Positions 3,060-26,993 of a stretch of 31,208 nt of DNA are shown here, piece by piece. Source of the stretch: a virus (lineage: Duplodnaviria; Caudoviricetes); IMG/VR virus record IMGVR_UViG_3300031673_000318, positions 1-31,208 of that record. One strand, given 5' to 3'. Made by a program: the position numbers and the translations under genes. Below the pieces are notes generated by a model, which saw only the letters and a program-made list of their open reading frames with translations, was not told the origin of the DNA and did not search any database. Numbering within the stretch: the first letter of the stretch is position 1; every line of letters begins with the position of its first letter.

Positions 3060-3767
3060 CTAGAAAGACTCATCAAATAGTGACGCTGCCCGACTGGCCT
3101 TACGGCTGTCTGTAGCTGCTGCTGTAGCAGGCTTCTTGGACTTGTTTTTTACGCCCTTTGGACGACCACGCTTCTTGGGTGCGTCGGCTTCAGGTGTGGC
3201 CTCAGCGTCCTTGTTTTTTACACCCTTTGGACGACCACGCTTCTTGGGCGCGTCGGCTTCAGGTGTGGCCTCAGCGTCCTTGTTTTTTACACCCTTTGGA
3301 CGACCACGCTTCTTGGGCGCGTCGGCTGCCTTCGCGTCGGTAGCTTTCTTGCTACCCTTTGGACGACCACGCTTCTTGGGCGCGTCGGCTGCCTTCGCGT
3401 CGGTAGCTTTCGCGTCGGTAGCTTTCGCGTCGGTAGCTTTCTTGCTACCCTTTGGACGACCACGCTTCTTGGGCGCGTCGGCTGCCTTCGCGTCGGTAGC
3501 TTTCTTGGGAGCAGCCTTTTTGGCGGTGGCTACGGGAGCCTCCACCTCGGCATCACTCGCAAGATCTTCGTCTGCGAAGTAGTACTGTACCATCGCCTTC
3601 GGAAGTGTGTACGTGCGGAGCTTGTTGGGGGCACGTCCCTTGGTTTTGTGCACAGCTTGTACGACGTACTCGGCGCCGCTGGCGTTTACCAACAAGCACT
3701 CGGTGACGGGCAGCTTTGCGCCGCGAACTCCTACTAATGTGATCTGCTGGGATGTCTTTTTGGCCAT
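3060..3767 (-). CDS. HMGA-like DNA-binding protein with five AT-hooks
   Basis: SD AAGGAGG then ATG at 3767 (MAKKTSQ); five KKRGRPKG motifs in a Lys/Ala-rich low-complexity region after a ~65 aa globular N-terminus; ends SLFDESF. Confidence 0.85.
   Translation of the reverse strand: MAKKTSQQITLVGVRGAKLPVTECLLVNASGAEYVVQAVHKTKGRAPNKLRTYTLPKAMVQYYFADEDLASDAEVEAPVATAKKAAPKKATDAKAADAPKKRGRPKGSKKATDAKATDAKATDAKAADAPKKRGRPKGSKKATDAKAADAPKKRGRPKGVKNKDAEATPEADAPKKRGRPKGVKNKDAEATPEADAPKKRGRPKGVKNKSKKPATAAATDSRKASRAASLFDESF
3141..3508. repeat. Intragenic tandem repeats encoding the AT-hooks
   Basis: CCCTTTGGACGACCACGCTTCTTGGG recurs at 3154, 3223, 3292, 3355 and 3448 (spacings 69, 69, 63, 93 bp), with nested 15-bp KATDA units. 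Confidence 0.9.
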
Positions 3768-3780
3768 GTTTAGCCTCCTT

Positions 3781-5421
3781 CTATGTGCTTTCTTCTTCAC
3801 TGTTCGATGACTCTGTGAGGTCCCAACGCAACCTCACGAATCTGTTAAACCGAGCTTTTGCTACACTGACCTTATCGCCCTGTAGCTTAATGTCCACCTT
3901 AACGCCGACTAACTCGGCACGACGTTGCCAGTATTCCATGCGTTCGTCTTGACCTGCCTTGAAGAGGAAACCTCCACCAACATTAACTTTTTCTCCATTA
4001 AGGTCAACAACAAACGCACCCAGCCGCTCGCTGTAGCGGTAGGATACAGCACCATCGAGATGTGTCGAAATTCGACGGTCACGATCATCTTTCACAAGCG
4101 TGCGTAGATGCTCTGCAGCTGCCTCCGGATCGTCTACGTAGGCGTTGAAGTAGTAACCATCATCCTCGACACCATCGAACTCGGTGACCATTGCGTCGCG
4201 GATGATGCTTTTGTCTCGGGGAGATGCAGCAGAATGCTGCTTGGTTCCAGCCACCGTCCCAACGATGGTGGCGGTCTCGTCTTTCACAGGCTTGAGCTTG
4301 AGCACGTATTTGTGCGCACGGTCGAACACATGCGGTGCATTCATCATCTTGATCATGGTTCCCTCGAAGCCACCATCAAGGGACCAGGCATGAAAAGCGT
4401 CAAGGGCAGCTGCGTCAGGGATGACCTTGTGTCCAAGCACGTAAAGGTTATCCGTCGCCTGACGGACCTTTGCGTACAAACGTGTAGCTCCTGCTGCCCG
4501 CATGAGAAGCTGCTTGCGGTCCTTCCAGGGCATCTCGTACTTCTTTTTCATGTAATCTTCGACAGGAGCCCAGTCGAACAAAATCACACGAGTCTTTGCC
4601 AAGAAGTCCTCCTCATCAAAGGTCTCCGTCTTGCTCACCACACTGGACGTCTCGTTCCAGTCAGTAGCCAAAAACTCGCCATCGAGGAAGAGGGGTGTGT
4701 TTTTCGGCGCACCGCGTAGCTCGTTAAGCGTTGCAGCGAACGCGATGCACTGGTCGATGAGAGATTCTACACCCTCTATTTCAGCTTTGCGTAGTAGACC
4801 ACGCGTGTGCACCTGAAGCTCATGCTCATCAGGGAAGATGTAAAGAAGGGCACGCTCACCATCCAACTTGAACTCCGCTGTTACAGGGAATTCGAGAGGC
4901 TTCTTCTCGGTCACCACCTTCTCAAAGTCTTTGGCCAGGCAGCATCCGTGGTAGTGAAATTCTCCCTCTTTTGTGCCTGTCCAGAAACCTGAACCGTAGA
5001 TTTTCTCGATGGTAGTACGACCAACACCAATGCGAAGGTCATGGTCTAACACGCGCAGGTACCACTTACGGACGCGTGGGTGGCACTTGGCGAGGAAGTT
5101 TGTCATCTTCTCGCGTGCTGTGTTTCCTGTAACGCGCCGTGCTGTAAGCGCGTCCAAAGCGATGAGAAATGACTTGAACGATTCTAGTGTACCGTAGCCG
5201 TTCTCAGCAGACGGAACGTCCTCCTTGAAGCGCACGTAGTACTTGTCGGTACCCAGCGCCTTCAGAAAAAACTCCTGCAGCACCGGGTTGGATTTGCTCT
5301 CCTCAACGATCCCCTTACGAACTTTGGGACCTGCCGCGTTCTCAAGCTCCTCGAGCACAAGTATCGCGGCTTTGAACGTGTCTATCTCGAGTGTCTCGAG
5401 GTACGAGTTGTCTCTCGGCAT
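3781..5421 (-). CDS. lig: ATP-dependent DNA ligase
   Basis: Motif I EFKLDGER, III FLDGEF, IIIa LFDW, IV EGTMIK, V LKLKP, VI RFNRFVRLRWD. Confidence 0.93.
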   Translation of the reverse strand: MPRDNSYLETLEIDTFKAAILVLEELENAAGPKVRKGIVEESKSNPVLQEFFLKALGTDKYYVRFKEDVPSAENGYGTLESFKSFLIALDALTARRVTGNTAREKMTNFLAKCHPRVRKWYLRVLDHDLRIGVGRTTIEKIYGSGFWTGTKEGEFHYHGCCLAKDFEKVVTEKKPLEFPVTAEFKLDGERALLYIFPDEHELQVHTRGLLRKAEIEGVESLIDQCIAFAATLNELRGAPKNTPLFLDGEFLATDWNETSSVVSKTETFDEEDFLAKTRVILFDWAPVEDYMKKKYEMPWKDRKQLLMRAAGATRLYAKVRQATDNLYVLGHKVIPDAAALDAFHAWSLDGGFEGTMIKMMNAPHVFDRAHKYVLKLKPVKDETATIVGTVAGTKQHSAASPRDKSIIRDAMVTEFDGVEDDGYYFNAYVDDPEAAAEHLRTLVKDDRDRRISTHLDGAVSYRYSERLGAFVVDLNGEKVNVGGGFLFKAGQDERMEYWQRRAELVGVKVDIKLQGDKVSVAKARFNRFVRLRWDLTESSNSEEEST

Positions 5422-5445
5422 GGTAATTGCCTCGTAATTAGAGCG

Positions 5446-6417
5446 TTATTCGGGGCTCGCTGTTTTCTTGGTGATCTGCGGGTCGCGTGTATTTTTCCAT
5501 TCCTTGTACTTGTAGGTGAACTTTTGCCCCTTGTGAGACTTCACGCCCGCCAGGATGATGTTACCGCGAGCGATGGACAAAATGAGCCCTTCAACACGCT
5601 CTTTAGATACCAGGTCTTTCCACTCCACCCAGTCGCCTGATTCGAACTTAGGCTTCGGTGGACGTTTCGGACGCGCTTTCTGGGAAGCAACCTTGGAGTA
5701 CTGACGGATGAAACCTTCAGCCAGATTCAGCTGCTCCAGATTGTTAAACGACATCACGAAGCCCTTGGCATTCGCGAACACCTCCCGCAGGTCTGCTTCA
5801 ACAGCATGACGCTCTAACCAGCCGCCGAGGAAGTCGGAGGCACCAAGAATCTTCTTCAGTCCTGGCAGCATGCTGCGAACGGTAAGAATTTCTGGAAGCG
5901 ACATGCTGAGGAAAGTACTGAGCTCTGCGTCGTACTCTTTGCAGACGAAGAAGGAGCCACATGAAAAACGCTCGGCGCTCATGACGGTGTCCGCGTCAAG
6001 ACGACGCCCTGCGCTACACCGCTTTTTACCAAGCCACTCACGTTCCCAAAGCGCGCAGTGCTTACATTTGATGGGGATGACGTCACCGGGATGGTACGTT
6101 TTTCCACCGGCAGCCGTGAAGCCACGCTGGACCTCGTAGCTGGAAGCCACATCCGAGGGATCACCTTCCTTTGAAGGCGGCGCGGGTGCCTCTTCGGATT
6201 TAGCGGGCGCAGCAGCTTCCTCTTCGCCTGAGCTCGCTTCTTCCTGCAACTCTTCTTCGGAAACCTCTTCAGATGTAGAAGGTTCATCACCCTCAGGAAC
6301 TTCCTCTTCGGAAGGTTCCTTTGAAGCAGGCTCCACGTTGTCGGGCTCATCGTCGGTCAGTGACGCTTCGAACAGGTCTGGGTCAAGACCCTTGACGACA
6401 TCTTCGTTTTTTGCCAT
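5446..6417 (-). CDS. Hypothetical protein: acidic disordered N-terminus, Cys cluster, C-terminal SH3/KOW-like domain
   Basis: SD GGAG; ~90 aa E/D/P/S-rich N-terminus; CKHC...C...C..C; FESGDWVEWKD...GLILSI. Confidence 0.75.
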   Translation of the reverse strand: MAKNEDVVKGLDPDLFEASLTDDEPDNVEPASKEPSEEEVPEGDEPSTSEEVSEEELQEEASSGEEEAAAPAKSEEAPAPPSKEGDPSDVASSYEVQRGFTAAGGKTYHPGDVIPIKCKHCALWEREWLGKKRCSAGRRLDADTVMSAERFSCGSFFVCKEYDAELSTFLSMSLPEILTVRSMLPGLKKILGASDFLGGWLERHAVEADLREVFANAKGFVMSFNNLEQLNLAEGFIRQYSKVASQKARPKRPPKPKFESGDWVEWKDLVSKERVEGLILSIARGNIILAGVKSHKGQKFTYKYKEWKNTRDPQITKKTASPE

Positions 6418-6453
6418 CTCGTAATGCTCCTCTTGATAGTGGATCGCTAAAGA

Positions 6454-7281
6454 CTAGCTGTCTTCTGTTAACTGTTGGTAACTGTTCGCCACGAGGGCGA
6501 CATCTTTCGCATCTACACAATACTGCTCAGCGACTTCTTCTTCAGTACGTTCAATATCATCATCAGAGTAGAGTAGCATATCTACTGCTTTGCTCAAATC
6601 GGGGCCGACACCATCGATGCCTTCCACCCACTTAAAGAAGCTTTTGATTAGGTCGTCGGGAACACCACCACGGGTAATCATCCCCTCGCAAGCGCTCTTA
6701 AAATCCTCACGCGTAGTGTCTCCCATCAACCGGAGTATCGAAGGAGTAGCTGCTTCATGCGCAAAGATGAACGTTTCTTTTTTACCCGACGCTTGAATAG
6801 CATCCCGGATCTTGAGCATCTGTTGACGGAAGGTGGGACCAGTGTAAGCGGAGGCCACGACAGCTTTTTTACGAGCGCGCTTAGCTGCGGAAAGAGGTAT
6901 ATCAATTTTCAGGCTGACTGCCTCTTCCTCGATACGGCGTAGTAGCTCATCACGACTCTGACGTGGACGCCCCACAATCTTGCCCTCCTCGTCTACCTCT
7001 GCATCCATTAAAGGGACACCCAAGTCAACGAGGTCGGAAGCGTCACCAAAAGCCACCACGAGCCCAATATTAGCTGCATGAGGTGCAAGCTGCCCCAGCT
7101 TCTCAAGTGCACGCAACGCGACAACTTGCCGACGACGCTCCTGTTGAAGCTTCAACGGTTGGTTGTTTGTTTTCGCAGGAAACAAATGGATGTGATCCTG
7201 CTTGTGATTGGCGACTAACACAAAAGCTTCCGGGCTGAAGTAGGCAAACCCAACTGCTTTCACTGAGGAAGGCTGACTCAT
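6454..7281 (-). CDS. Hypothetical protein
   Basis: 275 aa ORF; start overlaps the upstream stop (ATGA); no recognisable motif. Confidence 0.75.
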   Translation of the reverse strand: MSQPSSVKAVGFAYFSPEAFVLVANHKQDHIHLFPAKTNNQPLKLQQERRRQVVALRALEKLGQLAPHAANIGLVVAFGDASDLVDLGVPLMDAEVDEEGKIVGRPRQSRDELLRRIEEEAVSLKIDIPLSAAKRARKKAVVASAYTGPTFRQQMLKIRDAIQASGKKETFIFAHEAATPSILRLMGDTTREDFKSACEGMITRGGVPDDLIKSFFKWVEGIDGVGPDLSKAVDMLLYSDDDIERTEEEVAEQYCVDAKDVALVANSYQQLTEDS

Positions 7282-7790
7282 TTATCGATCCTCCGAAGCC
7301 TTCCGAAAAACAGTTCTCTTAATTCGGGACTGCTTAGCGGAAGTAGCACACTCGCAATGTTTTTGTCAACTTGAAAAATGGCTTTGTCAGATTTTTTTGG
7401 CTTACCCTTGCACGCAGAATGTTCGCAGCTGGCTACCAAGTTGCCGTCTAGCAAGAAAAACGGTACCCACTCAAGTCTTACACCACACACGTTTTTCACG
7501 TAGTCGTGCAGAAAGTCGTCTGTGTCATAGTAGACGTCGTGAAAGCACAGCAGTAGCCAGGCGACTGCTACAGCCAAAGGGCTGTCGGCGGTGCGTTCGA
7601 GTCGACTTAGAATCTGTGGACCACTAAGAGTTCTGTACTTAATGTGGTCACTTTTATGAGCAATAATCCGTACTTCCCCACCACTGGCACCTGGTATTTC
7701 AATCGAGTCAACACCAGGCATCGCATCAAGAAGCCACTGAATTATCTCTGGTGACTCCTTGGACAGCTGAAAAAATGCGTTAGCAATCAT
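7278..7790 (-). CDS. Hypothetical protein
   Basis: 170 aa ORF filling the gap between sbcC and the next gene in the same orientation. Confidence 0.65.
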   Translation of the reverse strand: MIANAFFQLSKESPEIIQWLLDAMPGVDSIEIPGASGGEVRIIAHKSDHIKYRTLSGPQILSRLERTADSPLAVAVAWLLLCFHDVYYDTDDFLHDYVKNVCGVRLEWVPFFLLDGNLVASCEHSACKGKPKKSDKAIFQVDKNIASVLLPLSSPELRELFFGRLRRIDK

Positions 7791-7799
7791 TGCTCACTA

Positions 7800-10238
7800 C
7801 TACTGTTTTACAAGTTCGGACGCCATTTGATGATATTTCGCAGGCGGGTCTTCCAGATAAAGTGTTGCGTTATTATTCTCGCGAATCGCCCACCATGTTT
7901 GGTCCCAAATCGGGTGTGATAGCACCTCCGGACGGTGGGATATCACGAACACCGATCCAAACTTTTGCTTTAACAGCGCAAAAATCGAGATAAGACCCTC
8001 TGTACCCAACGGGTCCAGGTTTCCAAACGGCTCGTCAACGATGAGCACGTTGGAGCTACTACCTGTGTAGAGCTCCTTCAAGTCGCGGAGGCCGAACAAA
8101 AAAGCGAGTCCAGCCTTGTGTCGTTCACCACCAGAAAGCAAGCTGCTGTTGGTAGACACTTCTTCGAGACGCCGACCAAGCCCAAACTGTAGGGAACCCT
8201 CCTGGTCTGTCAAGTGCAGCGATACATTTCTGTTTGGCCACAAAATGTCGGAGTACGCAGGAACTGTGCGCTCCGCTGCGTCGGACAAAATGGCATCGAA
8301 ACGATCCTGTTTCATACCCTTGCTGCCAAACGACTTGTGCAAAGCCTCTAGACAACGAATCTCAGCAATGAGGGCCTCCTGCTTGCGTAGGGTACGCTTG
8401 AGCACCTTCTCATGACGAAGCAGCTGCCGAAGCTCGTTCACACGCTCACGCAGATGAGCCTCATCACTACTTGCCTCCGCTATCTTAGTGGCTGCTCGCT
8501 TCAACCGGCTACGGAGCTCCCGCAACTTAGTTTCCACTTCCTGCATGTCACCACGAGGAAGCTGCTTGAGCTCCTCCAGCTTTTCTACGATGAATTTGCC
8601 CGTCTCGTAGCGGTCCCGGTACTTGTCTACAACGCGGCGCGCTTTTTCGCAGCGCTCCACCAAGTCATCCTTGCTGTCGGAAGGCATAGCCGCAAGCTCG
8701 GCTTCGATTTCTATGCGGCGTCGTGAAGTCTCAAGCTCAGCGGAAAGCCTGCGCTCCTTACCACTAAGTAGACGGATGTCCTCTGTCACCTCTTCTGGAG
8801 AACGCTTGGTCTGGAACATGGTCAAGCGGGAACGAATTCCCTCTGCATTTCGACCGTCGTTTATCTCTTTTTTCAAAACGTGCAGCCTCGAAGTGGTCTT
8901 CTGCAACTCGTCACGAAGCTGGGCAAGCTCGGTACGCTTGGCGTTAATTTCCTCTGCGGACAGATCGTAGGGACGTTTGCAATGTGGACACGCAGCATGG
9001 CGAAGCTCGGTGTCCAAATTTTTAACGTCGCGCTCTAGGGCTGCTTCGCGCAGCTTAGCTGCGTCCTGTTCCTCAACAAGCTCATCCAAAGGAGCCGTGG
9101 GCTCCGCAAGCCGCTGAAGTTTGATCATCAATCCCTGGCGCTCTTCTGCCTGTGGAAGCTCTACCTGGTTGAGGTAGGTAAGCTTCGTCTTTGTTTCTGT
9201 CAGGTCTTCTTGTATCTCTTCTGCATCTCGGTCGCTGAGTTTCTGTAACTGCGCCCGGAGAGCTTCACGCTTTTCTACCTTCTCCAGGTCAGACTGCGCC
9301 GAAGCATACTCCGCATTAAGATTGTCGTACTTACGCTTCCAACGGTCAACGTCTTTCTGGGTGATGTCCTTTGGGTGGTCGAACGTCTTGACCAGGTCGC
9401 TGCCCTTGAACCGAGACATTGTTTGTCTACGCCCAGACGTCCGCTGCTGCAGCTTCGAGTGTAGAGAAGACACCTCGGTGTACTCATCGGTGTCCTCTGA
9501 GTTTTCGTCCTTGAGATGCTCCAACATTATTTCTGCTGCTTCGTGGTCAGCCTCGAGGTCTACCAAATCTGGCATCGAAAAGATTTTCTGTTTAACCTCT
9601 CGAAGCTCGTTGCTCACCTGCGCGAAGTCGGACATCGAAGTCTCGTGCATAGAGAGCATCCGCTTGGCCAACACGTACAACTCGTCGTAAATGTCCAGGT
9701 CGAACATCACTGTCAACCGCTTACGTCGCTCGAACTCTTTGCCATGAATCATGACATTGTTGAGCTCTTGCACCAAGTAGATAAGGTTGAAGAAGGTGGT
9801 TTCGTCAAGTGATAGCAGCCCTTCACGGATCCACTTGTGAGGTGCACGTGAAGCGTCTATAGGGAGGACGTTCTGGCCCGTCTCTCTATCGATCACCATC
9901 ACTTTATTGTTGAACCGGTGGTGCTGGCGGTACTGCCGTATCTCGTAAGGGTGCCCGCCAACACGCAACTTCAGGGTGGCCGACATGTCGGCCCCGCTAA
10001 ACAAGTTGACGATATCGGATTTATGATCACCGCGCCGCTGGTCCCGCTTGCCCCCTTTACCTACCTGCAACTGTGCAAACACCTCGAAGATGGAAGACTT
10101 CCCCGCACCCAGAAAACCACCATCATCCATGTTCAACCCACGCACCAACACGAGTCCCTGATTCGCCAACGGGAAGCTGCACTTCCGGTAGATGTAGGCG
10201 TTCTCGAACTCCAGCGACTCGTATTCAATGAAGGGCAT
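7800..10238 (-). CDS. sbcC: SbcC/Rad50/gp46-like SMC-family ATPase
   Basis: Walker A GAGKSS, long coiled coils with central zinc hook CPHC, signature LSGGE, Walker B LIVDEP, H-loop ISH. Confidence 0.93.
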   Translation of the reverse strand: MPFIEYESLEFENAYIYRKCSFPLANQGLVLVRGLNMDDGGFLGAGKSSIFEVFAQLQVGKGGKRDQRRGDHKSDIVNLFSGADMSATLKLRVGGHPYEIRQYRQHHRFNNKVMVIDRETGQNVLPIDASRAPHKWIREGLLSLDETTFFNLIYLVQELNNVMIHGKEFERRKRLTVMFDLDIYDELYVLAKRMLSMHETSMSDFAQVSNELREVKQKIFSMPDLVDLEADHEAAEIMLEHLKDENSEDTDEYTEVSSLHSKLQQRTSGRRQTMSRFKGSDLVKTFDHPKDITQKDVDRWKRKYDNLNAEYASAQSDLEKVEKREALRAQLQKLSDRDAEEIQEDLTETKTKLTYLNQVELPQAEERQGLMIKLQRLAEPTAPLDELVEEQDAAKLREAALERDVKNLDTELRHAACPHCKRPYDLSAEEINAKRTELAQLRDELQKTTSRLHVLKKEINDGRNAEGIRSRLTMFQTKRSPEEVTEDIRLLSGKERRLSAELETSRRRIEIEAELAAMPSDSKDDLVERCEKARRVVDKYRDRYETGKFIVEKLEELKQLPRGDMQEVETKLRELRSRLKRAATKIAEASSDEAHLRERVNELRQLLRHEKVLKRTLRKQEALIAEIRCLEALHKSFGSKGMKQDRFDAILSDAAERTVPAYSDILWPNRNVSLHLTDQEGSLQFGLGRRLEEVSTNSSLLSGGERHKAGLAFLFGLRDLKELYTGSSSNVLIVDEPFGNLDPLGTEGLISIFALLKQKFGSVFVISHRPEVLSHPIWDQTWWAIRENNNATLYLEDPPAKYHQMASELVKQ

Positions 10239-10241
10239 AGG

Positions 10242-11384
10242 CTACCAGCTTTTGATGAGCTTCATTGTACGGAAAGTAGCTGCTTCAAGCAGTGCAATAG
10301 AATCGGTAGAGTACAACTTGGTGCGCTCTAACACGGTGCAGTAGTCGTCAAGAATGAGTGGTAAACTCTCCGTCGACTGTGGCTTACGCGCAGTGACACC
10401 CTTGAGCAGCCACATTTTTCCTGGGTCGCACAAGGCATCTTTGTCAATCCACGAGTAGAACAGCTGCTGGAACGTCTCGAGCACGCACTGTGTAAAGTAG
10501 CCTGGATTGGTTACGTGTTGGAGTGCCTGCAGCGCCATCGGCAGGTTGCCTGCTACCACAGCACCCACGTAGCGTCTGATGACCTCGGAAGTCTGCAGTT
10601 CGGTCGACTGCGCTACCACCTTGGTGAGTAGCTCCTGCCAGTTGGATGTCTCGCCTTTCGCAGCTTCAGCGTGATTGATAACCTTGCTGAGCAGCCCGAG
10701 GGCATCACGAAGATGCCCATCGCTAGCGGTAGCAATTTGCAAGCACAGCTTCTTCAGCATATCATTGGGAGGTTGAAAGCCTTCCTTGACGGCGATCTGA
10801 TACACACGCTTCGCCACGGCTTCTGTAGGCAGCGGCTCGAGCGAAAAAATCTCTCCACGGCTACGAATGGTGGAGGGTAGCTTCTCGAAGTTGGTGGTGC
10901 ACAGAATGTAGCGTGTGCGCCGAGGTGGATCCTCCAGCATCTTGAGCATCGCCTGGAAAGCAGCACCTGTAATCTGATGTGCTTCATCCAGGATGAACAC
11001 CCGAAAGTTGTACCGAGGTGCTTGAGGAGCGATGGACGCTAAGCGGCGAATCTCATCAATGCCACCATGCAGTGCTACGTTCAACTCTGTCACGTCGGGA
11101 TGTTCAGACCTACCCAACAATACGGGTTTCATCTGCTTGCAGCTAGAGCACTCCCCGCAAGGTTCAATGCCGCTGGGTTTCTGACAGTTGATGTAGTAGG
11201 CTACGAGACGCGCCAGCGTTGTTTTACCTGCACTGTACGGACCATGAAAAATCAACACAGGGTCGATTCTCTTGTTCATGATCATGCCACGCAGACTGTC
11301 TACTACCTCTACTTGCCCCACCATCTCAGCGAATGCTTTAGGACGCCACTTCGCTGCTAGATGCAAGTTATCCTTGTTCATCAT
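10242..11384 (-). CDS. dnaX: DNA polymerase III gamma/tau-like clamp-loader ATPase (gamma length)
   Basis: KWRPKAFAEMVGQ, Walker A GPYSAGKTT, zinc site C...CGECSSC, Walker B ILDEAH, LPSTIRSR, GHLRDA. Confidence 0.92.
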   Translation of the reverse strand: MMNKDNLHLAAKWRPKAFAEMVGQVEVVDSLRGMIMNKRIDPVLIFHGPYSAGKTTLARLVAYYINCQKPSGIEPCGECSSCKQMKPVLLGRSEHPDVTELNVALHGGIDEIRRLASIAPQAPRYNFRVFILDEAHQITGAAFQAMLKMLEDPPRRTRYILCTTNFEKLPSTIRSRGEIFSLEPLPTEAVAKRVYQIAVKEGFQPPNDMLKKLCLQIATASDGHLRDALGLLSKVINHAEAAKGETSNWQELLTKVVAQSTELQTSEVIRRYVGAVVAGNLPMALQALQHVTNPGYFTQCVLETFQQLFYSWIDKDALCDPGKMWLLKGVTARKPQSTESLPLILDDYCTVLERTKLYSTDSIALLEAATFRTMKLIKSW

Positions 11385-12447
11385 TGTCCTGTACCTGGTA
11401 TCTGTCTGGAAGTTCTACAGTCACGCCTGCTGTTTTTGCCAACTTTATGGCAATCCGCCATGCCAACGGGTACAAATCTTCTGGAAGGTGGGCTCTCTCC
11501 AACGCTGTTTCAAGATCATCAAAAATTCCCACCGTGACCATTTGTTGGTCGCGATCCTGGCGACGCTCAAGCGACACCACACTAGGATGAAATTCAACGT
11601 TCAGTGGCAGAGCGTTTTCGGGAAAAGGACCCTCTGGACGAAACTGGATCAGCGCTTCCTCAGGAGGAGGCCAATCCTCGAGTTCCTCAGTAACGATACG
11701 AAGAGGGATGGACGGAACAGGAACAAATTCGGGATCTGCTGGGCGGTTGGTATCAACAATGAGCACGCCCTTTTCCGCGACCTCGTCAAAACGGGTTTGG
11801 TGCGGCGACCCAGAGTACCACGCGCAATCCAGTAACGACTGGCAGATGTGCATGTCGCCCATCGCCCAGTAAGTCACAGAAGGAAGGTTGTTGTCGATAC
11901 GGATTTGGTTCGCCTTGGTGATGCTCAAACCAACGTCCGTTTTACAGCCCTGCACTGCTTCATGAAGAACAACTACTACCGGTAAATCCGGGTTGGTGCA
12001 GTAGTCCTCCAGCAATGCCTGCACAATCAAGAAAAGTTCCTGGTCCATCCATCCCTGGTAAGGCATTAGCACCAGGTAGCAACCGAAGCGTTCGTACACA
12101 CTGGGCTCACCATCGTGAACGAGGTGATTCCCTAAGCGCTGTGCGAAGGCGGAGAGGTAACTCAAACAGGTGTCGCCAACTTCCACAGAACGCTTGTCGT
12201 GATTACCGCTGATCATCACAACTGGTACACGGCACTCAGCGAGCCACTCCGACAGGAGCAGGCGCTCAGCGTGTGTAATATCACGTCGGTCGTAGATATC
12301 CCCCGCTACTACTATGAAATCGACCTCACGGTCCTCCGCAATATTCTGGATATGGCGAAGGCACGCCTTTGCACGGCCCAGATAAAACTGGCTGAACCGA
12401 CGCAGAGCGTTGAGGTGCAAATCAGAGGTGTGTAAAAACGTTGGCAT
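11368..12447 (-). CDS. sbcD: SbcD/Mre11/gp47-like metallophosphoesterase nuclease
   Basis: LHTSDLH, AGDIYD, GNHD, LHE, MGDMH, YSGSP motifs; near sbcC. Confidence 0.93.
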   Translation of the reverse strand: MPTFLHTSDLHLNALRRFSQFYLGRAKACLRHIQNIAEDREVDFIVVAGDIYDRRDITHAERLLLSEWLAECRVPVVMISGNHDKRSVEVGDTCLSYLSAFAQRLGNHLVHDGEPSVYERFGCYLVLMPYQGWMDQELFLIVQALLEDYCTNPDLPVVVVLHEAVQGCKTDVGLSITKANQIRIDNNLPSVTYWAMGDMHICQSLLDCAWYSGSPHQTRFDEVAEKGVLIVDTNRPADPEFVPVPSIPLRIVTEELEDWPPPEEALIQFRPEGPFPENALPLNVEFHPSVVSLERRQDRDQQMVTVGIFDDLETALERAHLPEDLYPLAWRIAIKLAKTAGVTVELPDRYQVQDNDEQG

Positions 12448-12460
12448 ACTACCGTGGTGC

Positions 12461-12709
12461 TTACAGGTCTACTGGACGGACGGTCGTCCTCTTGTTACCC
12501 ACACAGCGCAAGGCGGAATCGAGCATCATCTGGGTGAACTTTTTCGCGAGGGAATCCGCGAGGGTACCGTCGACACGGAGACCGATGGAACTGAAGTACT
12601 CCTTCACCTTGGATGCGGTGATGACCTTCTTCCCGTGCTCCTCGAAGAAATTTCCTGTGGCTTTCCTCATCTGCATCTCATCTAGAACTTTTCTTTTCTT
12701 TTCTGCCAT
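12461..12709 (-). CDS. Prokaryotic-type histone-fold protein with basic N-terminal extension
   Basis: Good SD (AGGAGAG). VITASKVKEYF (alpha1), LRVDG (L1), a long alpha2, then NKRTTVRPVDL carrying the histone R-x-T-x-x-x-x-D signature, as in bacterial Bd0055-like histones. Confidence 0.85.
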   Translation of the reverse strand: MAEKKRKVLDEMQMRKATGNFFEEHGKKVITASKVKEYFSSIGLRVDGTLADSLAKKFTQMMLDSALRCVGNKRTTVRPVDL

Positions 12710-12724
12710 GACTCTCTCCTTTGT

Positions 12725-13768
12725 TCAGGCTTCTTCTGTACACTGTTTCAGGTACACTGTTGAGTGGCTGAAACGTAGCGCTTTCCATTTTGCCCATGGA
12801 GCGTCACCACGCATCAGCGAGCGAATGTGAGGGTTTAAAACGGTACCATCTTGATACAAAGCGACGGTACCATTCAAGGTGTTCAAGTAACTGAGTAGTA
12901 TGTGTGTGCCGTCGAGATCGAGCGCTCCTATGCCCTCGAAAGGAGGGTCCACCCAGAAAAGGGTGTGCGGGGCGTCATTGATCTGCAGCACTTTTTCAAT
13001 CGTATTATGCTCTATCTGCACACGGTACAGGCGGCTATGCAGCTGCGGCAGAACCGGGTCTACGCTACGCAGCGCAGCCATTACTTTATCAGAGGTGGTA
13101 TCGGGCAGTGTCTCCTGTGCAGGAGCGAGCTCCACCGCAGGGAACGCGTCACGCATGTAGCAGTACCACGCATACGCAGCTAACACAGCATCCCGGTCAT
13201 TCTGCTCTTCCCACACTGCAAACAGGTGGGAAGTCAGGAAGGAGTTGGTCGGGGGGACGAGTTGGCTGATCAGGTAAAACCAACTGAAAGAGGATGGATC
13301 GCGCAACGTATGGAAAAGGGTAATAGCAGCCCGAGCGTAGTCGTTGAATACCTCTACTGGAGCGGGTTCTCGAGCCATCAGAAGAGGCGCCCGTCCACCA
13401 AACACCTCCACGTACACTTGACAATCTGGGAGCGCCTGCGCGACTTCACGTAGAGGGCTGTCCTCGGGACGTCCTGCGTATGAAGGCAGTCCCGCTATAG
13501 GAGCACTCCAATCCTGAAGTGACTCATATTCGTAGAGGAAGACATAGCAGCCTAAACCGCGCAGCAGAAGCGCTACTTCTTTGAGATCATCACGCTCCCA
13601 CCGAAACTTGTAGAGCCCTGGCGCTAACGCGTCGAACGGTAGAGCACGGTTCCGCAAACTTGGCGCAGCTGTGATGAGTAGTACCCCGTAGGTACCATCA
13701 GCATGGCGTCGTACTAGCAGAAAAACCGAGCTAAATACGTCCGTAATAGATGATAATCCTCTAGCCAT
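12725..13768 (-). CDS. Dam-like (D12 class) DNA adenine methyltransferase, divergent, with N-terminal extension
   Basis: YVEVFGG (motif I), EVFND (motif II), LFHTLRD, FWVDPPF (motif IV, F for Y); start overlaps the recA stop (TAATG). Confidence 0.75.
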   Translation of the reverse strand: MARGLSSITDVFSSVFLLVRRHADGTYGVLLITAAPSLRNRALPFDALAPGLYKFRWERDDLKEVALLLRGLGCYVFLYEYESLQDWSAPIAGLPSYAGRPEDSPLREVAQALPDCQVYVEVFGGRAPLLMAREPAPVEVFNDYARAAITLFHTLRDPSSFSWFYLISQLVPPTNSFLTSHLFAVWEEQNDRDAVLAAYAWYCYMRDAFPAVELAPAQETLPDTTSDKVMAALRSVDPVLPQLHSRLYRVQIEHNTIEKVLQINDAPHTLFWVDPPFEGIGALDLDGTHILLSYLNTLNGTVALYQDGTVLNPHIRSLMRGDAPWAKWKALRFSHSTVYLKQCTEEA

Positions 13769-15057
13769 TAAAACGATTCGTCGAAGCTAAGGTCAGCGTG
13801 ATCTTCCTGCTTACTCTTGTTGACAGGTTTTTTGCCAACCTTGCGTCGGTTAACGCGGGTTTCTTCGTACTCCGCAGCTTCATCTGCTACCTGCTGTTTG
13901 AGGTCTTCTTCGTCGTTGTCGTCTACTTCGTCTGGAACGTCGTAATCGGCATCGTAGAAGTAGGTAGACTCGTTACTTTTCTCGAAGTAGGTGCGGTACG
14001 TTTCGTTCTCCCGCAACATAGCAAAGCACATAGCACGAAAGTCTGGATGCTCCACTGTGCGACGGAAGTCACCCCAACTGAGTATCTTGTTATCGTACCC
14101 CTCCAAATGGATTTTCTGCTTACCCGCACGAATCTCGAGGAGACCCAGGTGTTTCAGGAAGTAGAAAGCGTCGTAGGACTTGTCCAACCCGCGCCCAAGC
14201 ATGAGACGCATATCTGTGCTGCGAAACGGTGGGAACGCTTTGTTCTTGGTCGTTCGCCAGATGACAGGTACCGTCTGAACACCGATCTTGTCGGGCTCTA
14301 CACGCTTCACAGAGGAGCGCACTTTGTACCCGGGCCAGAATCGAAGTGCTTTGCCACCAGATTCGTGTTGGGGAGCTCCATAGCCCCCAATGTTGGTACG
14401 CATCTGGTTAGTGCCGATGAGCAATGCACCACGTCTTCGCAGGCGCGGAACTACGCGTTTGAGGAAGTAGCTGTGCATCCGGGCTTCGTCAGCAATCCGG
14501 CCACCGTCACCGACCTCATCTACCTCTTCACTACCCATCCCTGCGAAGCTATCCACCAAGAAAAGCATCCGAGGTGGACCGTCGTCCACGATAGGCATCT
14601 TGCTAAGCACACGAAGGATATGACGGTAGACCGCTTCTCCGGTATCTGGTTGCGTGTAGAAGAATCCTGGACGCTCGATGGTTTTTTTGCCATCTTTGAA
14701 CTTGACTTTGTAGTTTAGGTCGACGCCCATCGTACGCATGTAGACGGGATCTGACCCCGCTTCAGGGTCGTACAGGCAAGCTGGAATATTTATCAACTGA
14801 GAGCTAGCCAGGATGGAAGTGAGCAGAGTAGATTTACCACTCCCCTCCGGACCGAAGGTGGTCCCCATCAAGCCTGGCTTGAAGCCGCCACCAGTAATCA
14901 AGTCCAAGGAAAGGCTTCCGGTAGAGAGCACATCTTTTACGCGCTGTCCTTGCCGTAAGTTGATGCAGTCGAGCTCCTCCACCTCGTCAAAAGCGGCAGA
15001 AGCTGCTTCCGCAGGATGCACTATCTCTATCTTTAGCTTGTCTTTCTTTTTGGACAT
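13768..15057 (-). CDS. recA: RecA/UvsX recombinase with acidic C-terminal tail
   Basis: STGSLSLDLITGGG, Walker A GPEGSGKST, Walker B FLVDS, NQMR, SGGKALRF, KNK. ATG at 15057 with SD GAGG preferred over 15144. Confidence 0.93.
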   Translation of the reverse strand: MSKKKDKLKIEIVHPAEAASAAFDEVEELDCINLRQGQRVKDVLSTGSLSLDLITGGGFKPGLMGTTFGPEGSGKSTLLTSILASSQLINIPACLYDPEAGSDPVYMRTMGVDLNYKVKFKDGKKTIERPGFFYTQPDTGEAVYRHILRVLSKMPIVDDGPPRMLFLVDSFAGMGSEEVDEVGDGGRIADEARMHSYFLKRVVPRLRRRGALLIGTNQMRTNIGGYGAPQHESGGKALRFWPGYKVRSSVKRVEPDKIGVQTVPVIWRTTKNKAFPPFRSTDMRLMLGRGLDKSYDAFYFLKHLGLLEIRAGKQKIHLEGYDNKILSWGDFRRTVEHPDFRAMCFAMLRENETYRTYFEKSNESTYFYDADYDVPDEVDDNDEEDLKQQVADEAAEYEETRVNRRKVGKKPVNKSKQEDHADLSFDESF

Positions 15058-15428: not shown

Positions 15429-16634
15429 CTACCACCCCGAGGGGTCGTCCTCTTCCACTGCTTTAGTAGTAACAGTGGAAGAGGTCTTTTCACTGGGAGA
15501 GTCGCCCCAGCCGTCGTCACTGAAAAGGGTGTCATCGAATTCGGGACCGCTTTCACTGCTGTCACCGCTGTCGGCGCTAGCAGCAGTCTCATCTCCCCAC
15601 GCGTCATCGGTGCTGGCAGATTTACCGTTGCCAGAGTCGTCACCCCACGCGTCATCGGTGCTGGCAGCAACGCTTGTCTCGCCCCATCCTTCGTCAGAAG
15701 GAGCAGACTCTAATGGCTCCGATGGCGAGTCGTCGTCGCCCCACGCTTCGTCTTCCGCTGGAGGAGGTGGGGCAGCCTTAGCTTTAGCTGGTCGTCCACT
15801 ACCAGTGGGCCTCCTGGATTGCTTCGCAGACTCAGAGTCACCCCAGCTACCTGAACGGTCGTTGCCAGGCTCATCGCGGCTTGCAACTACCTCGATCACT
15901 TCTTCAAGACGAGCGTACAGTCCAAGACGCTTCAGGTCTGCGCGGATCGTGTCGGGATCTTTGACCTCGACAATTTCATCGAACGGCGTGGGCTCACCCT
16001 TAAAGATGTTGCCCCCACCCTTCATCATCCAGATACCCTTTTCCTCGTCAAACTTCACAGGCATTTTGTTGCCCTGGTAGAAGCGTACGCGGTCCTTCGG
16101 GTCTTGAGCTTTTTCGTCGTAGTGCCACAGAACGGAGGTGCCCTTTTGGGGGTCATCCAATTCGCAGCCCATGATGTCACCGATCATCGCCAGGTCGTTC
16201 TTTCCATATTTGTTGGTGAACAGGACGCCGAAGACGTCCTTCCGACCTTCTTTGGCTGCGGTGATGTCGAAAGCTTCGATGTAGTAACGGAAGGACCCAA
16301 GCAGACGAAGCTCCTGAGGAAGGCTGTCGTCTTGGAAATCGGCGCACAGGGGGCACGACGCATCAGGCCCCTTCCTAAATTGTCCGGTGTCCCAGTCAAA
16401 ATCCGGGCACACCTCATAGAAACCGCTCTTGCTTCCGTCTTTGCGCTTGAACCGCACATAATGCTGGAAGATGGTAAAAATACCACCGACCAAGCGGATC
16501 TCCTTCGGTTTGCCCCTCTTCGGCTTCTCGAGGTAGTCAAGCTTCTGGTGCCACTTATCTGCGTAAGTTCCGCCACCAGGGGCATTGGAAATGGGACGAC
16601 GTCCCCGTGGATATGGTGACTTTTTGCTGGCCAT
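15429..16634 (-). CDS. gp32-like single-stranded DNA-binding protein with long acidic WG-repeat tail
   Basis: SD AAGGAG; IRL, H, C...CPLC zinc pattern of gp32-type SSBs; ~140 aa acidic disordered tail; next to recA. Confidence 0.75.
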   Translation of the reverse strand: MASKKSPYPRGRRPISNAPGGGTYADKWHQKLDYLEKPKRGKPKEIRLVGGIFTIFQHYVRFKRKDGSKSGFYEVCPDFDWDTGQFRKGPDASCPLCADFQDDSLPQELRLLGSFRYYIEAFDITAAKEGRKDVFGVLFTNKYGKNDLAMIGDIMGCELDDPQKGTSVLWHYDEKAQDPKDRVRFYQGNKMPVKFDEEKGIWMMKGGGNIFKGEPTPFDEIVEVKDPDTIRADLKRLGLYARLEEVIEVVASRDEPGNDRSGSWGDSESAKQSRRPTGSGRPAKAKAAPPPPAEDEAWGDDDSPSEPLESAPSDEGWGETSVAASTDDAWGDDSGNGKSASTDDAWGDETAASADSGDSSESGPEFDDTLFSDDGWGDSPSEKTSSTVTTKAVEEDDPSGW

Positions 16635-18927: not shown

Positions 18928-19401
18928 CTAGTACCCGCTACGCTGGCGGTGATAGCGCCCACGGGGCCTGTCGTTGCGACCAGGAGACCTACGACGTCTT
19001 CCCCGTTGAGGACGTCGACCCTTCTCTAGTAGCATGATGTCGTACTCCACTCCAGAGTCACCAGAAGCAGAGCGGGCGATGGATCGAACAGCGTCCACGG
19101 TGTGCCCATCCTTACCGATGACCTGCCCTAAATCCTCCTCCTTGACATCCAACTCTATAATCACCAGACGACTTGCTCGGATAATGTTCACCCGGAGCTC
19201 CTTCGAATGGTTGGCAATACGTAATATGGAAAGCACAACGAGCGCTTCGATGCTGAGCTCACTGATGTCTTCAACTGAATCAATTTCGTTGTCCAGAAAC
19301 TCGGAAGCGCTCTGAAAACCGGCAGTACTCTGCGCGTCTGATCCTTTCTCTGTTGGCGTCTCGTCTGATGGAATCTCTTCGTGTTGGTCACGATCAGCCA
19401 T
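18928..19401 (-). CDS. khpA: KhpA-like KH-domain RNA-binding protein with acidic N-tail and Arg/Gly-rich C-tail
   Basis: IIELDVKEEDLGQVIGKDGHTVDAVRSIAR is the KhpA-type GxxG KH signature; SD AAAGGAAG before ATG at 19401. Confidence 0.8.
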   Translation of the reverse strand: MADRDQHEEIPSDETPTEKGSDAQSTAGFQSASEFLDNEIDSVEDISELSIEALVVLSILRIANHSKELRVNIIRASRLVIIELDVKEEDLGQVIGKDGHTVDAVRSIARSASGDSGVEYDIMLLEKGRRPQRGRRRRSPGRNDRPRGRYHRQRSGY

Positions 19402-19415
19402 GTCTCTTCCTTTCA

Positions 19416-20342
19416 CTAGTGGGACTCTAAGAACGATGCGAGGATGAATAGCTCGTGTTCCGACCTCTCCTGTGGTTGTCCTTCAATCTCTACCTTCCTA
19501 CTCAAAATTCCATCAATCGCGGGTGAGAAACAAACAGTACGCCAAGGGCAGTAGGTAGCATAGGAGTCAGAAGGTTCCACACAAAGACCACGTGGGATTC
19601 TTCCACTCGTTAAGCACTCCTCCGCGAGCTTAATGCGACCAAGTACGTCCTCGTAAATATGGCGGCTGATGGACACCTGCATAGGAAGCCACGTTTTCCA
19701 GGGTGTACCCCTATCTACATAGATGATAATTATCTTTTTCAGCTTTTCTGTTAAGCCGAAATCACTCAAGTGATCGTTGACGTAGTTGGCGTACGCGTTG
19801 ATCTGTAAGTAGTGCGACTCCTTAGGCTTGTTGGCTGCCTTGTACTCCCGAATCTTCTCCAGACTCGAGCCCTTGAAATCGATGAGGTAGTTGTCGGGGG
19901 TGCGCAGGATACCGTCAAGGTGCCCACTGAACGGATTGTCCTTCGTGCGCTTGATGGCGTACTCATGGTAAACCATTTCGCGGCCACAAGAACCACACAC
20001 CTGTATTCCTGTCTGATGCCGACGAATTACCTTGCAGTTGACACACACCCAGTTACCATGAAGCTGACCCTCGATAGCAAACCATTTCTGGAGCGCCAGG
20101 TGCAACGCGGTACCCATCCAGGCCGAGCTCTCTGCGATGAACGTCTCCTCCCTACGAGGACGCTTCCGTACAGGGAGGCGACGATAGATAACGTACGCTC
20201 GAGGACAAATTGGGAAGCTGCTCGCACGTATCTGAATGTACTCAGGGTGCTCTATCTTGCGCCGCATGTAGCGAATATCACCAAAGCTTTTGCGGATAGG
20301 AGCACTAATCCGCTCTGCGTTGGGAATGTCGAAGATGGACAA
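19416..20342 (-). CDS. Solo Cas4/AddB-like PD-(D/E)xK exonuclease with Fe-S cysteines and a zinc-ribbon insertion
   Basis: RASSFPICPR, GTALH, GHLDG...LIDFK, QINAY, C-terminal C...CPWRTVC; inserted CVNC...CGSC; SD GAGGAG before TTG. Confidence 0.8.
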   Translation of the reverse strand: MSIFDIPNAERISAPIRKSFGDIRYMRRKIEHPEYIQIRASSFPICPRAYVIYRRLPVRKRPRREETFIAESSAWMGTALHLALQKWFAIEGQLHGNWVCVNCKVIRRHQTGIQVCGSCGREMVYHEYAIKRTKDNPFSGHLDGILRTPDNYLIDFKGSSLEKIREYKAANKPKESHYLQINAYANYVNDHLSDFGLTEKLKKIIIIYVDRGTPWKTWLPMQVSISRHIYEDVLGRIKLAEECLTSGRIPRGLCVEPSDSYATYCPWRTVCFSPAIDGILSRKVEIEGQPQERSEHELFILASFLESH

Positions 20343-25712: not shown

Positions 25713-26345
25713 ATGAGTATGGTCGAAATACACAACGTATCTCAGTACAGGGTTGGGCTCTCTTCGAGCTACCTAGGAGCTCAGGGGCGTCCTCTATACA
25801 TAGGACTGGGTCCTACTCAAATCAAGCAGATAACGCAAGAAGAGCTCAGGAATTGGGGGGATGGGTCGAAGGCCGACCTAGCTGGATACGTACAACACGG
25901 CGTCCTGAAAGTAACTGAGCTCACGTCGGTGCACCTAGTGGACGACCTTGGGAACCCTCTAGAACCAGTTACTGCTGTTAGCTTACAAGAAGCGTACGAT
26001 ACAGCAGACACCATCAGAATCGCCTACAATGCACACATAGTGAGCTTGGCGGTGCATGGGGTACCAGATCTAGCGAACATTGAGAGCCTGGCAAAGCCCA
26101 CAACCCTTCTGCTGCTTACTGCGTTCATTGCCTCTCTACAAGGAAACTTCAACGCACATATTGCGTTGGGGGTTGCTACGCATGATGTAGCGGACGCCTG
26201 GAATCCCGTAGTGGCGGTAACTGGAACGCTAGCGCAGAACATTCTAGCACTCCGGGAGTTGTACGCGAGATACCGCTCACACCAAATACAAAGTGACCCG
26301 CTTGGAAGCACCGTACTGAACCCAAACCAAATCATCGCCTACTAG
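25713..26345 (+). CDS. Hypothetical virion protein, paralog A with His/Asp repeats
   Basis: SD AGGAG; 210 aa; aligns end to end with the next gene. Confidence 0.8.
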   Translation: MSMVEIHNVSQYRVGLSSSYLGAQGRPLYIGLGPTQIKQITQEELRNWGDGSKADLAGYVQHGVLKVTELTSVHLVDDLGNPLEPVTAVSLQEAYDTADTIRIAYNAHIVSLAVHGVPDLANIESLAKPTTLLLLTAFIASLQGNFNAHIALGVATHDVADAWNPVVAVTGTLAQNILALRELYARYRSHQIQSDPLGSTVLNPNQIIAY

Positions 26346-26360
26346 CAGTCGGAGTGTACT

Positions 26361-26993
26361 ATGATCAAAGTCCAGAACATCTCGCCGTATAAAATCGGTA
26401 TTTCTTCGAGTTACGTAGGCACGCAGGGACGCCCATTATACATAGGGCTGGAACCGTCGCTGCACATGCAGATGACCCAAGAGGAGCTCAAAAAGTGGGG
26501 TAACGGTGCTAAAGCGGACCTTGCCAGCTACGTGCAACGCGGACAGCTACTCGTGACTACGATGACAGCGGTGCACGTAGTAGACGACCTTGGCAATGTT
26601 CCAGCACCATTTGGGGCGTTCGATCTCCAATCTGCTTACGACACAGCAGACGACCTGAGAAATGTGTACAACACACACCTGCTGAGCTTGGCTGTACATG
26701 GCGCACAAGATCTTGCAAACCCGGAGACGCTGGCTAAACCAGTCTCTCTAGCGTTACTCACCGCATTTATAACGTCGTTTCAGGGCAACTACACAGCGCA
26801 CATTGCACTGGGTGCAGCAACGCACACAGTTGCGGACAGCTGGAATCCGCTAGTTCCTGCACCAGTCGGTACGTTGGACCAAAACATAGCGGCGCTTCGT
26901 GAGCTCTACGGAAGGTTTTCTGGGCACAAAAAACAAAGTAACCCAGCAGGAACAACCACCCTCAACCCAAACGACATCATAACTTACGTCTGA
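26361..26993 (+). CDS. Hypothetical virion protein, paralog B with His/Asp repeats
   Basis: SD GGAG; 210 aa; tandem paralog of 25713-26345. Confidence 0.8.
   Translation: MIKVQNISPYKIGISSSYVGTQGRPLYIGLEPSLHMQMTQEELKKWGNGAKADLASYVQRGQLLVTTMTAVHVVDDLGNVPAPFGAFDLQSAYDTADDLRNVYNTHLLSLAVHGAQDLANPETLAKPVSLALLTAFITSFQGNYTAHIALGAATHTVADSWNPLVPAPVGTLDQNIAALRELYGRFSGHKKQSNPAGTTTLNPNDIITYV

Follow-up and report, generated by a model that had tools for sequence, protein, structure and literature searches.

The window analysed here is an entire 31-kb viral contig (31,208 nucleotides; IMG/VR record IMGVR_UViG_3300031673_000318; Duplodnaviria, Caudoviricetes), and its minus strand carries a co-oriented run of genes, spanning 18284 down to 393, in which a histone and a protein with multiple AT-hooks lie among genes for RecA, SbcC, SbcD, DnaX and DNA ligase. 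A first-pass annotation of the sequence had described this block correctly, together with the four open reading frames (ORFs), for the histone, the AT-hook protein, a Dam-like protein and a protein with an acidic tail, from which it proposed a phage chromatin system. A known type of phage histone stands here beside a degenerate Dam and an AT-hook protein not described before, a real, lineage-wide arrangement, shared with a complete genome of 349,793 bp with terminal repeats that was found via the histone (G001) and with a second large relative, a 260-kb fragment (G002). We lean towards a reading in which the histone and the AT-hook protein, both DNA-architectural and encoded in a core replication operon, act independently of each other, and the Dam-like and acidic genes are probably not partners of the histone. 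The two basic proteins are likely to organise DNA; for a coordinated four-part chromatin system, though it is possible, no support was found.

A phage histone and a multi-AT-hook protein

The gene at 12461–12709 (minus strand) encodes an 82-amino-acid (aa) protein with a short Lys-rich N-terminus. Its annotation as a histone-fold gene was upheld by a phmmer match to the bacterial histone HLp (PDB 9QT0) at E 9.1e-8, and searches of Pfam, PHROG and NCBIfam gave no match. R68, N72, R74, T76 and D81 are invariant in all eight close homologues, and four of these residues (R68, N72, R74 and D81) correspond to HLp R49, N53, R55 and D62, the residues of its tetramer and clamp contacts. The truncated alpha3 carries the RxTxxxxD motif (R74–D81), two residues from the C-terminal end. 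Judged on these sequence features, the protein is a face-to-face (FtF, alpha3) histone. A profile search collected 124 proteins at E 0.001, at most four of them false (peptidoglycan-binding or long), as judged by inspecting two. An N-terminal extension with a helix-like pattern is common to about 20 of the top profile matches and was not seen by eye in the 107 cellular FtF histones parsed (from at least 120 loci); an extra N-terminal helix is predicted from this pattern. Tandem double FtF histones were also encountered (P0024, P0026, P0030, P0031 and P0038); some of them carry a hydrophobic, signal-like segment at the N-terminus or a domain of RRM-like type.

Caudoviricetes FtF histones with a Lys-rich N-terminal tail of 5–40 aa are described as the class VFFHFP (Liu 2025, PMC13681535), and the window histone meets that description in both fold and tail; G001 and G002 are already listed among histone-containing viruses in supplement file 1 of the same work. 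HLp, from Leptospira perolatii, is described as a tetramer that wraps about 60 bp of DNA (PMC12701072), and HTkC of Thermococcus kodakarensis is reported to compact DNA further (bioRxiv 10.64898/2025.12.06.692711); in both accounts the wrapping was seen with purified protein. By analogy with these two characterised relatives, the window histone would probably form homotetramers and wrap about 60 bp without sequence preference. To this extent the earlier suggestion of a chromatin-like layer on phage DNA retains its footing, in a histone family with two DNA-wrapping members, and the part that found no support is the idea of four genes as one system.

The AT-hook protein (3060–3767, minus strand; 235 aa) starts at an ATG at 3767 with a purine-rich ribosome-binding site, and has the five hooks first noticed in it: five GRP cores in a chain of pI 10.2 and net charge +32, with no match to the Pfam AT-hook model at E 0.05. 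It consists of a probable beta-barrel head of about 68 aa, a short acidic linker, five RGRP hooks and a C-terminal [SA]LF[DE]xxF. Homologues have four to six hooks, forming a hypervariable array between a conserved head and a conserved end, and the C-terminal motif is present in all five distinct full-length homologues. An Atlas model, of low confidence, likens the head to SH3/Sm-like barrels (TM 0.5–0.6). By its motifs the protein may be HMGA-like in action; it is not an HMGA member. It would probably bind the minor groove of AT-rich DNA and bridge between sites. RecA (13768–13790) and the AT-hook protein (3060–3080), both on the minus strand, share their last five residues in the window as well as in G001, where no other pair among 461 ORFs does so; this shared end is given no weight, because its genome-wide chance is 0.08 and the two ends were not identical when compared in G002.

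It is probable that both proteins are expressed with the replication genes around them, and that each, acting alone, would most likely compact and organise branched, replicating phage DNA.

The Dam-like and acidic proteins

Directly upstream of the histone, as first reported, lies a Dam-like gene (12725–13768, minus strand), a degenerate paralogue of D12-class Dam that ends 15 nucleotides (nt) before the histone gene. The Dam fold was borne out: the model (pLDDT 79) had its best matches in the E. coli and T4 Dam proteins (Foldseek E 1.7e-5; VIA Z 10.8, rmsd 8.1, 184 aligned), and comparison with intact Dam gave an hhalign probability of 98.2. The match covers residues 100–346, and the first 100 residues form an extra domain. 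The description had to be amended on two points, the missing catalytic motif and the overlap with recA. DPPY is missing from all seven copies in the lineage, whereas 73 of 75 ordinary homologues from the same alignment have it; motif IV, of general form (D/N/S)PP(Y/F/W), reads DPPF in the window and one close homologue and is broken in five others, and residual activity is possible in the window copy because of its DPPF. The glycine-rich motif for S-adenosylmethionine (SAM) carries an Arg in five of the six copies parsed, and the copies have net charges of -5 to -20. In 5/5 loci the start of the pseudo-dam gene overlaps the stop of recA, with 13–48 nt separating it from the histone. We read the protein as a pseudo-enzyme tied to RecA rather than to the histone, whose partner it had been proposed to be. 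Probably the methyltransferase is dead and has been retained, coupled to RecA, as a scaffold or DNA-binding factor. A separate, intact Dam is encoded by G001. GATC is under-represented, with an observed/expected ratio of 0.57 in G001, despite its intact Dam-class enzyme, and 112 sites against 147 in the window. No description of an inactive phage Dam was found in a literature search that covered sources outside subscription journals, and dead Dam proteins that are conserved and coupled to RecA make up an unexplained family in themselves.

The acidic-tail protein (5446–6417, minus strand; 323 aa) carries the acidic tract, first put at about 90 aa, at its N-terminus, where it measures 95 aa with 35% D+E. 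Among 20 homologues, 19 have an acidic N-terminal tail (58–150 aa, 27–47% D+E), and the other lacks its N-terminus. A DLF motif lies near the N-terminus of the tail; L-F is found in 13 of the 19 tails and DLF in 10, and a GRP hook stands at the end of the tail in 4/20 homologues. The model (pLDDT 74.9) shows disorder to residue 90, then a Cys module, a helical bundle and a C-terminal SH3-like (Tudor/KOW) barrel. The Cys-rich module has four invariant cysteines and is a probable zinc-binding site. For the barrel (residues 252–323), ribosomal KOW, Spt5, Tudor, LSm and CarD domains tie at Z 6–7.5, the best match, at 7.5, being generic. A search of BFVD returned nothing at E 0.001, and the family was not found in GTDB contigs. 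Chaperone families were absent from the fold-search matches, which comprised only SH3-like barrels for residues 252–323 and barely covered residues 90–250, and so do not exclude a chaperone. Five G001 ORFs have acidic tracts of comparable density, so that an acidic tract alone is no mark of a chaperone. As modelled, the acidic protein is not a recognisable chaperone, and the role of histone chaperone that had been offered for it finds no counterpart in its fold matches. It may instead be a zinc/Tudor-KOW adaptor for transcription or replication, which we consider the probable function.

Conservation of the locus and its phage lineage

The order recA–pseudo-dam–histone–sbcD is kept in 5/5 distinct loci that cover the region (the window, G001, G002, L105 and L107), and acidic–ligase–AT-hook in 6/6 (the window, G001, G002/G003 counted once, L130, L132 and L133). 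A scan anchored on SbcC, and so independent of the four genes, recovered the same two other genomes, each with all four. None of the four genes is patchily distributed within the lineage, which was one expectation of the chromatin-system proposal. This co-occurrence singles out no module, because the whole block behaves alike: all 31 window ORFs queried matched G001 with their order kept (34–87% identity, one weakly). In G002, 20 window ORFs lie in order within a 22-kb stretch (33–70% identity).

Scanning viral contigs for the motif yielded 14 loci, four from this lineage, one without a parsed histone ORF and nine with FtF histones of other phages. None of the nine had any of the partner genes within 10 kb of the histone; in eight of these nine records, searched whole, neither the acidic nor the AT-hook gene was found, nor was the pseudo-Dam in the five searched for it. 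In three near-related loci (L116, L117 and L118, near 10001–11546), which belong to an unrelated phage group of 63% GC, a primase is close by and only 5 nt separate the FtF histone from a RecA/DnaB-like gene. The FtF histones of L112 (10001–10279) and P0020 begin with an AT-hook-like GRP motif of their own, P0020 being a histone with a hook-like tail. FtF histones are thus repeatedly linked with replication genes and with AT-hooks, but not with the acidic and Dam-like genes. Together with the fact that the four genes co-occur no more strongly than the other genes of the block do, this speaks against the claim that the four genes form one system.

Among the Pfam matches of 99 long G001 ORFs are a family-A polymerase that carries a UDG domain, DnaB, UvrD, both gyrase subunits (A and B), topoisomerase IB and baseplate J, along with a protein kinase and a PP2C phosphatase. 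At L007:9492-10973, L008:7805-10815 and L017:491-1996 this genome has a BrxL-like ATPase, a protein kinase together with a PP2C phosphatase, and topoisomerase IB. The block is best understood as the core operon for replication and recombination in a lineage of uncultured jumbo phages with its own sigma factor, family-A polymerase, DnaB and gyrase, and with relatives of 260 and 350 kb. Group 3.1 jumbo phages are described as defined by a T7-type polymerase (PMC7824862), and we infer that the lineage belongs to this group. The moraphages were considered and rejected; they carry a family-B polymerase and an H1-like gene (PMC12619734), and G001 has a family-A polymerase. The best cultured-phage matches of DnaX include PaBG and Yoloswag-type phages (27–37%, around 33%), in whose DnaX neighbourhoods, going by annotation, SbcCD is present and no histone is annotated. 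Searches of cultured phages by tblastn gave no match for the histone or for residues 90–237 of the acidic protein. As to a host, the top-scoring cellular histones among the matches listed came from Myxococcota, Deltaproteobacteria and Planctomycetota bins. A phage KhpA/KhpB-type KH RNA-binding protein (18928–19416), kept in G001, G002, L105 and L107, has its six best matches within 26 hand-picked genomes in Myxococcota or Deltaproteobacteria bins (33–36%), identities overall in that set being only 26–42%. NAPRTase, tried as a host clue, gave nothing in five genomes.

The remaining genes of the block, all on the minus strand, fit this replicative character. The first is a sigma-70-type phage factor (16755–18284). 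It is followed by a candidate single-stranded DNA-binding protein (SSB; 15429–16634), for which searches of Pfam, PHROG and the PDB gave no match; the protein has a conserved Cys/His N-terminal domain and acidic Trp-Gly-Asp repeats in its tail, with Trp as the final residue in every relative seen, and was assigned as a gp32-type SSB by eye. Its position bears on the mention of acidic partners in the interval 3060–13768, where one (5446–6417) is indeed present and the second, this SSB-like protein, lies outside. A RecA/UvsX-like recombinase with an acidic-aromatic C-terminus (13768–15057) precedes the pseudo-dam gene. Beyond the histone come an SbcD-like nuclease 13 nt downstream (11368–12447), a DnaX-like clamp-loader ATPase (10242–11384), an SbcC-like ATPase (7800–10238) and two ORFs of 275 and 170 aa (6454–7790) that are conserved in G001 and G002 and had no match in Pfam. 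An ATP-dependent DNA ligase (3781–5421) lies between the acidic and AT-hook genes. Promoter and terminator scans showed no excess over shuffled sequences. Elsewhere in the window, 25713–26993 holds a tandem pair of 210-aa paralogues with no family match, both of which are retained in G001.

Alternative explanations and known systems

Several points weigh against two proteins acting independently. The comparison draws on no more than two further large genomes, and the query for most loci was the histone or the acidic protein, so that gene loss in distant members could not be seen. Several of the negative histone-phage records are incomplete, and the pseudo-Dam search and one acidic search lacked a same-run positive control. 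The hooks fused to histones in P0020 and L112, with those in the acidic tails of four homologues, suggest some functional link among the proteins, and the lineage-specific N-terminal extension of the histone could bind a partner. One rival reading is the four-part chromatin system, in which the acidic tail would chaperone the histone, the AT-hook protein would serve as linker or HMGA, and the dead methylase would read or position the fibre. It accords with the retention of all four genes in both large relatives, the near-universal acidic tail, the Tudor-like barrel, the existence of histone–AT-hook fusions and the adjacency of histone and pseudo-dam in 5/5 loci. Against it stand the equal co-occurrence of the whole block, the partnerless histones of other phages, the comparable acidic tracts elsewhere in G001 and a barrel that fits KOW, Spt5, CarD and LSm about as well as Tudor; moreover, Liu et al. 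(PMC13681535), in the accessible text of their work, found no correlation between histones and chromatin factors in Caudoviricetes, and the word chaperone is absent from the accessible text of the HTkC paper (bioRxiv 10.64898/2025.12.06.692711). We consider this system distinctly improbable.

A clamp-tethered module, also unlikely in our judgement if less so than the four-part system, would have the AT-hook protein (through its C-terminal SLF) and the acidic Tudor/KOW protein (through its N-terminal DLF) dock on a phage DnaN-like clamp, coupling DNA organisation or late sigma-driven transcription to replication in the manner of T4 gp33/gp55/gp45 or Mu MuC. A divergent, unannotated DnaN-like gene of 400 aa lies between 5'-3' exonuclease and UvrD genes in G001 (L012:15777-16979), in G002 and, in part, on an overlapping contig of the window's phage (the remaining copies at L138:1480-2694 and L140:3001-3843). 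The G002 copy, alone among them, matches the dnaN model TIGR00663 at E 4e-4, but with a score far below the curated cut-off, and the Pfam clamp models found no match. DnaX is within the block, and the AT-hook end is kept in 5/5 homologues behind a hypervariable array, as the Leu-Phe motif is in most acidic tails. LF[DE]xx[LF] occurs five times in the 461 G001 ORFs, the AT-hook and acidic proteins being the only two terminal cases; the pattern was, however, chosen after seeing the sequences, and terminal [SD]LF is not enriched there (11 seen against 9.7 expected, ORFs cut at the borders of 20-kb stretches being missing from the count). The usual clients, namely ligase, 5'-3' exonuclease and the polymerase C-terminus, lack [SD]LF, and the Gln that stands upstream in the bacterial motif is absent. 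The AT-hook end and the acidic start resemble the clamp motifs of T4 polymerase, which is described as ending in KASLDFLF (PMC6212786), and of Mu MuC and Mor, MuC being described as having an N-terminal QHDLF whose Gln is dispensable and Mor as having only DLF (bioRxiv 2025.01.04.631326). The basic proteins might also act on other targets, as virion core proteins with the packaged DNA, as silencers of the host chromosome or as competitors of a host histone or CarD-type regulator. The H1-like genes of moraphages have been discussed in such terms (PMC12619734), the AT-hook layout of barrel, acidic linker and hooks parallels that described for myxobacterial CarD (PMC8156234), and the best KhpA matches among the 26 hand-picked genomes are Myxococcota-type; but both genes lie in the replication block rather than among structural genes, and the CarD RID model matched nothing in G001 or G002. 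We rate this possibility a shade below even the four-part system. Least probable of all is a replication-coupled chromatin, in which the clamp would carry the AT-hook protein and the acidic zinc/Tudor adaptor by their Leu-Phe motifs, the adaptor would load histone tetramers on the new DNA that the fork leaves behind, and the RecA-coupled dead Dam would mark recombination-primed forks; if true, this would give viruses of prokaryotes an analogue of PCNA-linked chromatin assembly.

The retention of a bacterial-type histone and a multi-AT-hook protein in a replication operon suggests that these phages package their own replicating DNA, and gives no evidence that the acidic protein or the dead-looking methylase works with the histone. 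It raises the question of whether a phage without a known nucleus shell organises or shields its replicating DNA by histones, and whether this is tied to the fork. No characterised phage FtF histone was found in the literature covered, and the constant genomic context, in which recA–dead dam–histone–sbcD is joined by an AT-hook protein and a clamp-like gene, makes a phage-histone role testable with a few small purified proteins. The novelty that had been claimed for the combination stands in part: no description of a phage block with AT-hook protein and histone was found among the papers listed in searches of literature outside subscription journals, whereas phage FtF histones themselves are already published (PMC13681535).

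Comparison with known systems shows how far each likeness extends. The Dam-like protein shares its fold and motif order with the Dam/D12 N6-adenine methyltransferases of E. coli and T4, and differs from them in its lost DPPY, the Arg in its SAM motif, its 100-aa N-terminal domain and its negative charge. HMGA proteins have no folded domain and end in a long acidic C-terminal tail; the AT-hook protein is like them in having several RGRP hooks (four to six in the lineage) in a disordered basic chain, and unlike them in its folded head of about 68 aa and an acidic end of two residues. Myxococcus xanthus CarD is described with a succession of N-terminal beta-barrel, acidic stretch and hooks (PMC8156234) like that predicted for the AT-hook protein, but the AT-hook protein is without the helical subdomain of CarD, its acidic stretch is about 10 aa rather than 50, and the CarD RID Pfam model (PF02559) found no match at E 0.1 in either large relative. 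With T4 gp33/gp55 and Mu MuC/Mor the lineage has in common that one genome combines short terminal Leu-Phe motifs with a phage sigma factor, a clamp loader and a clamp-like gene; no relationship was found in sequence or in fold, and clamp binding here is putative. The published survey of viral histones differs from the present account in that its accessible text gives no gene neighbourhood, AT-hook partner or pseudo-methylase (PMC13681535). The closest likeness is to HLp (PDB 9QT0-2) and HTkC, with which the window histone shares a short alpha2, a truncated alpha3, the RxTxxxxD end, the tetramer residues R68, N72 and R74 and the clamp residue D81, and from which it differs in being phage-encoded and in its N-terminal extension of about 25 residues, which shows a conserved pattern of helix-like kind.

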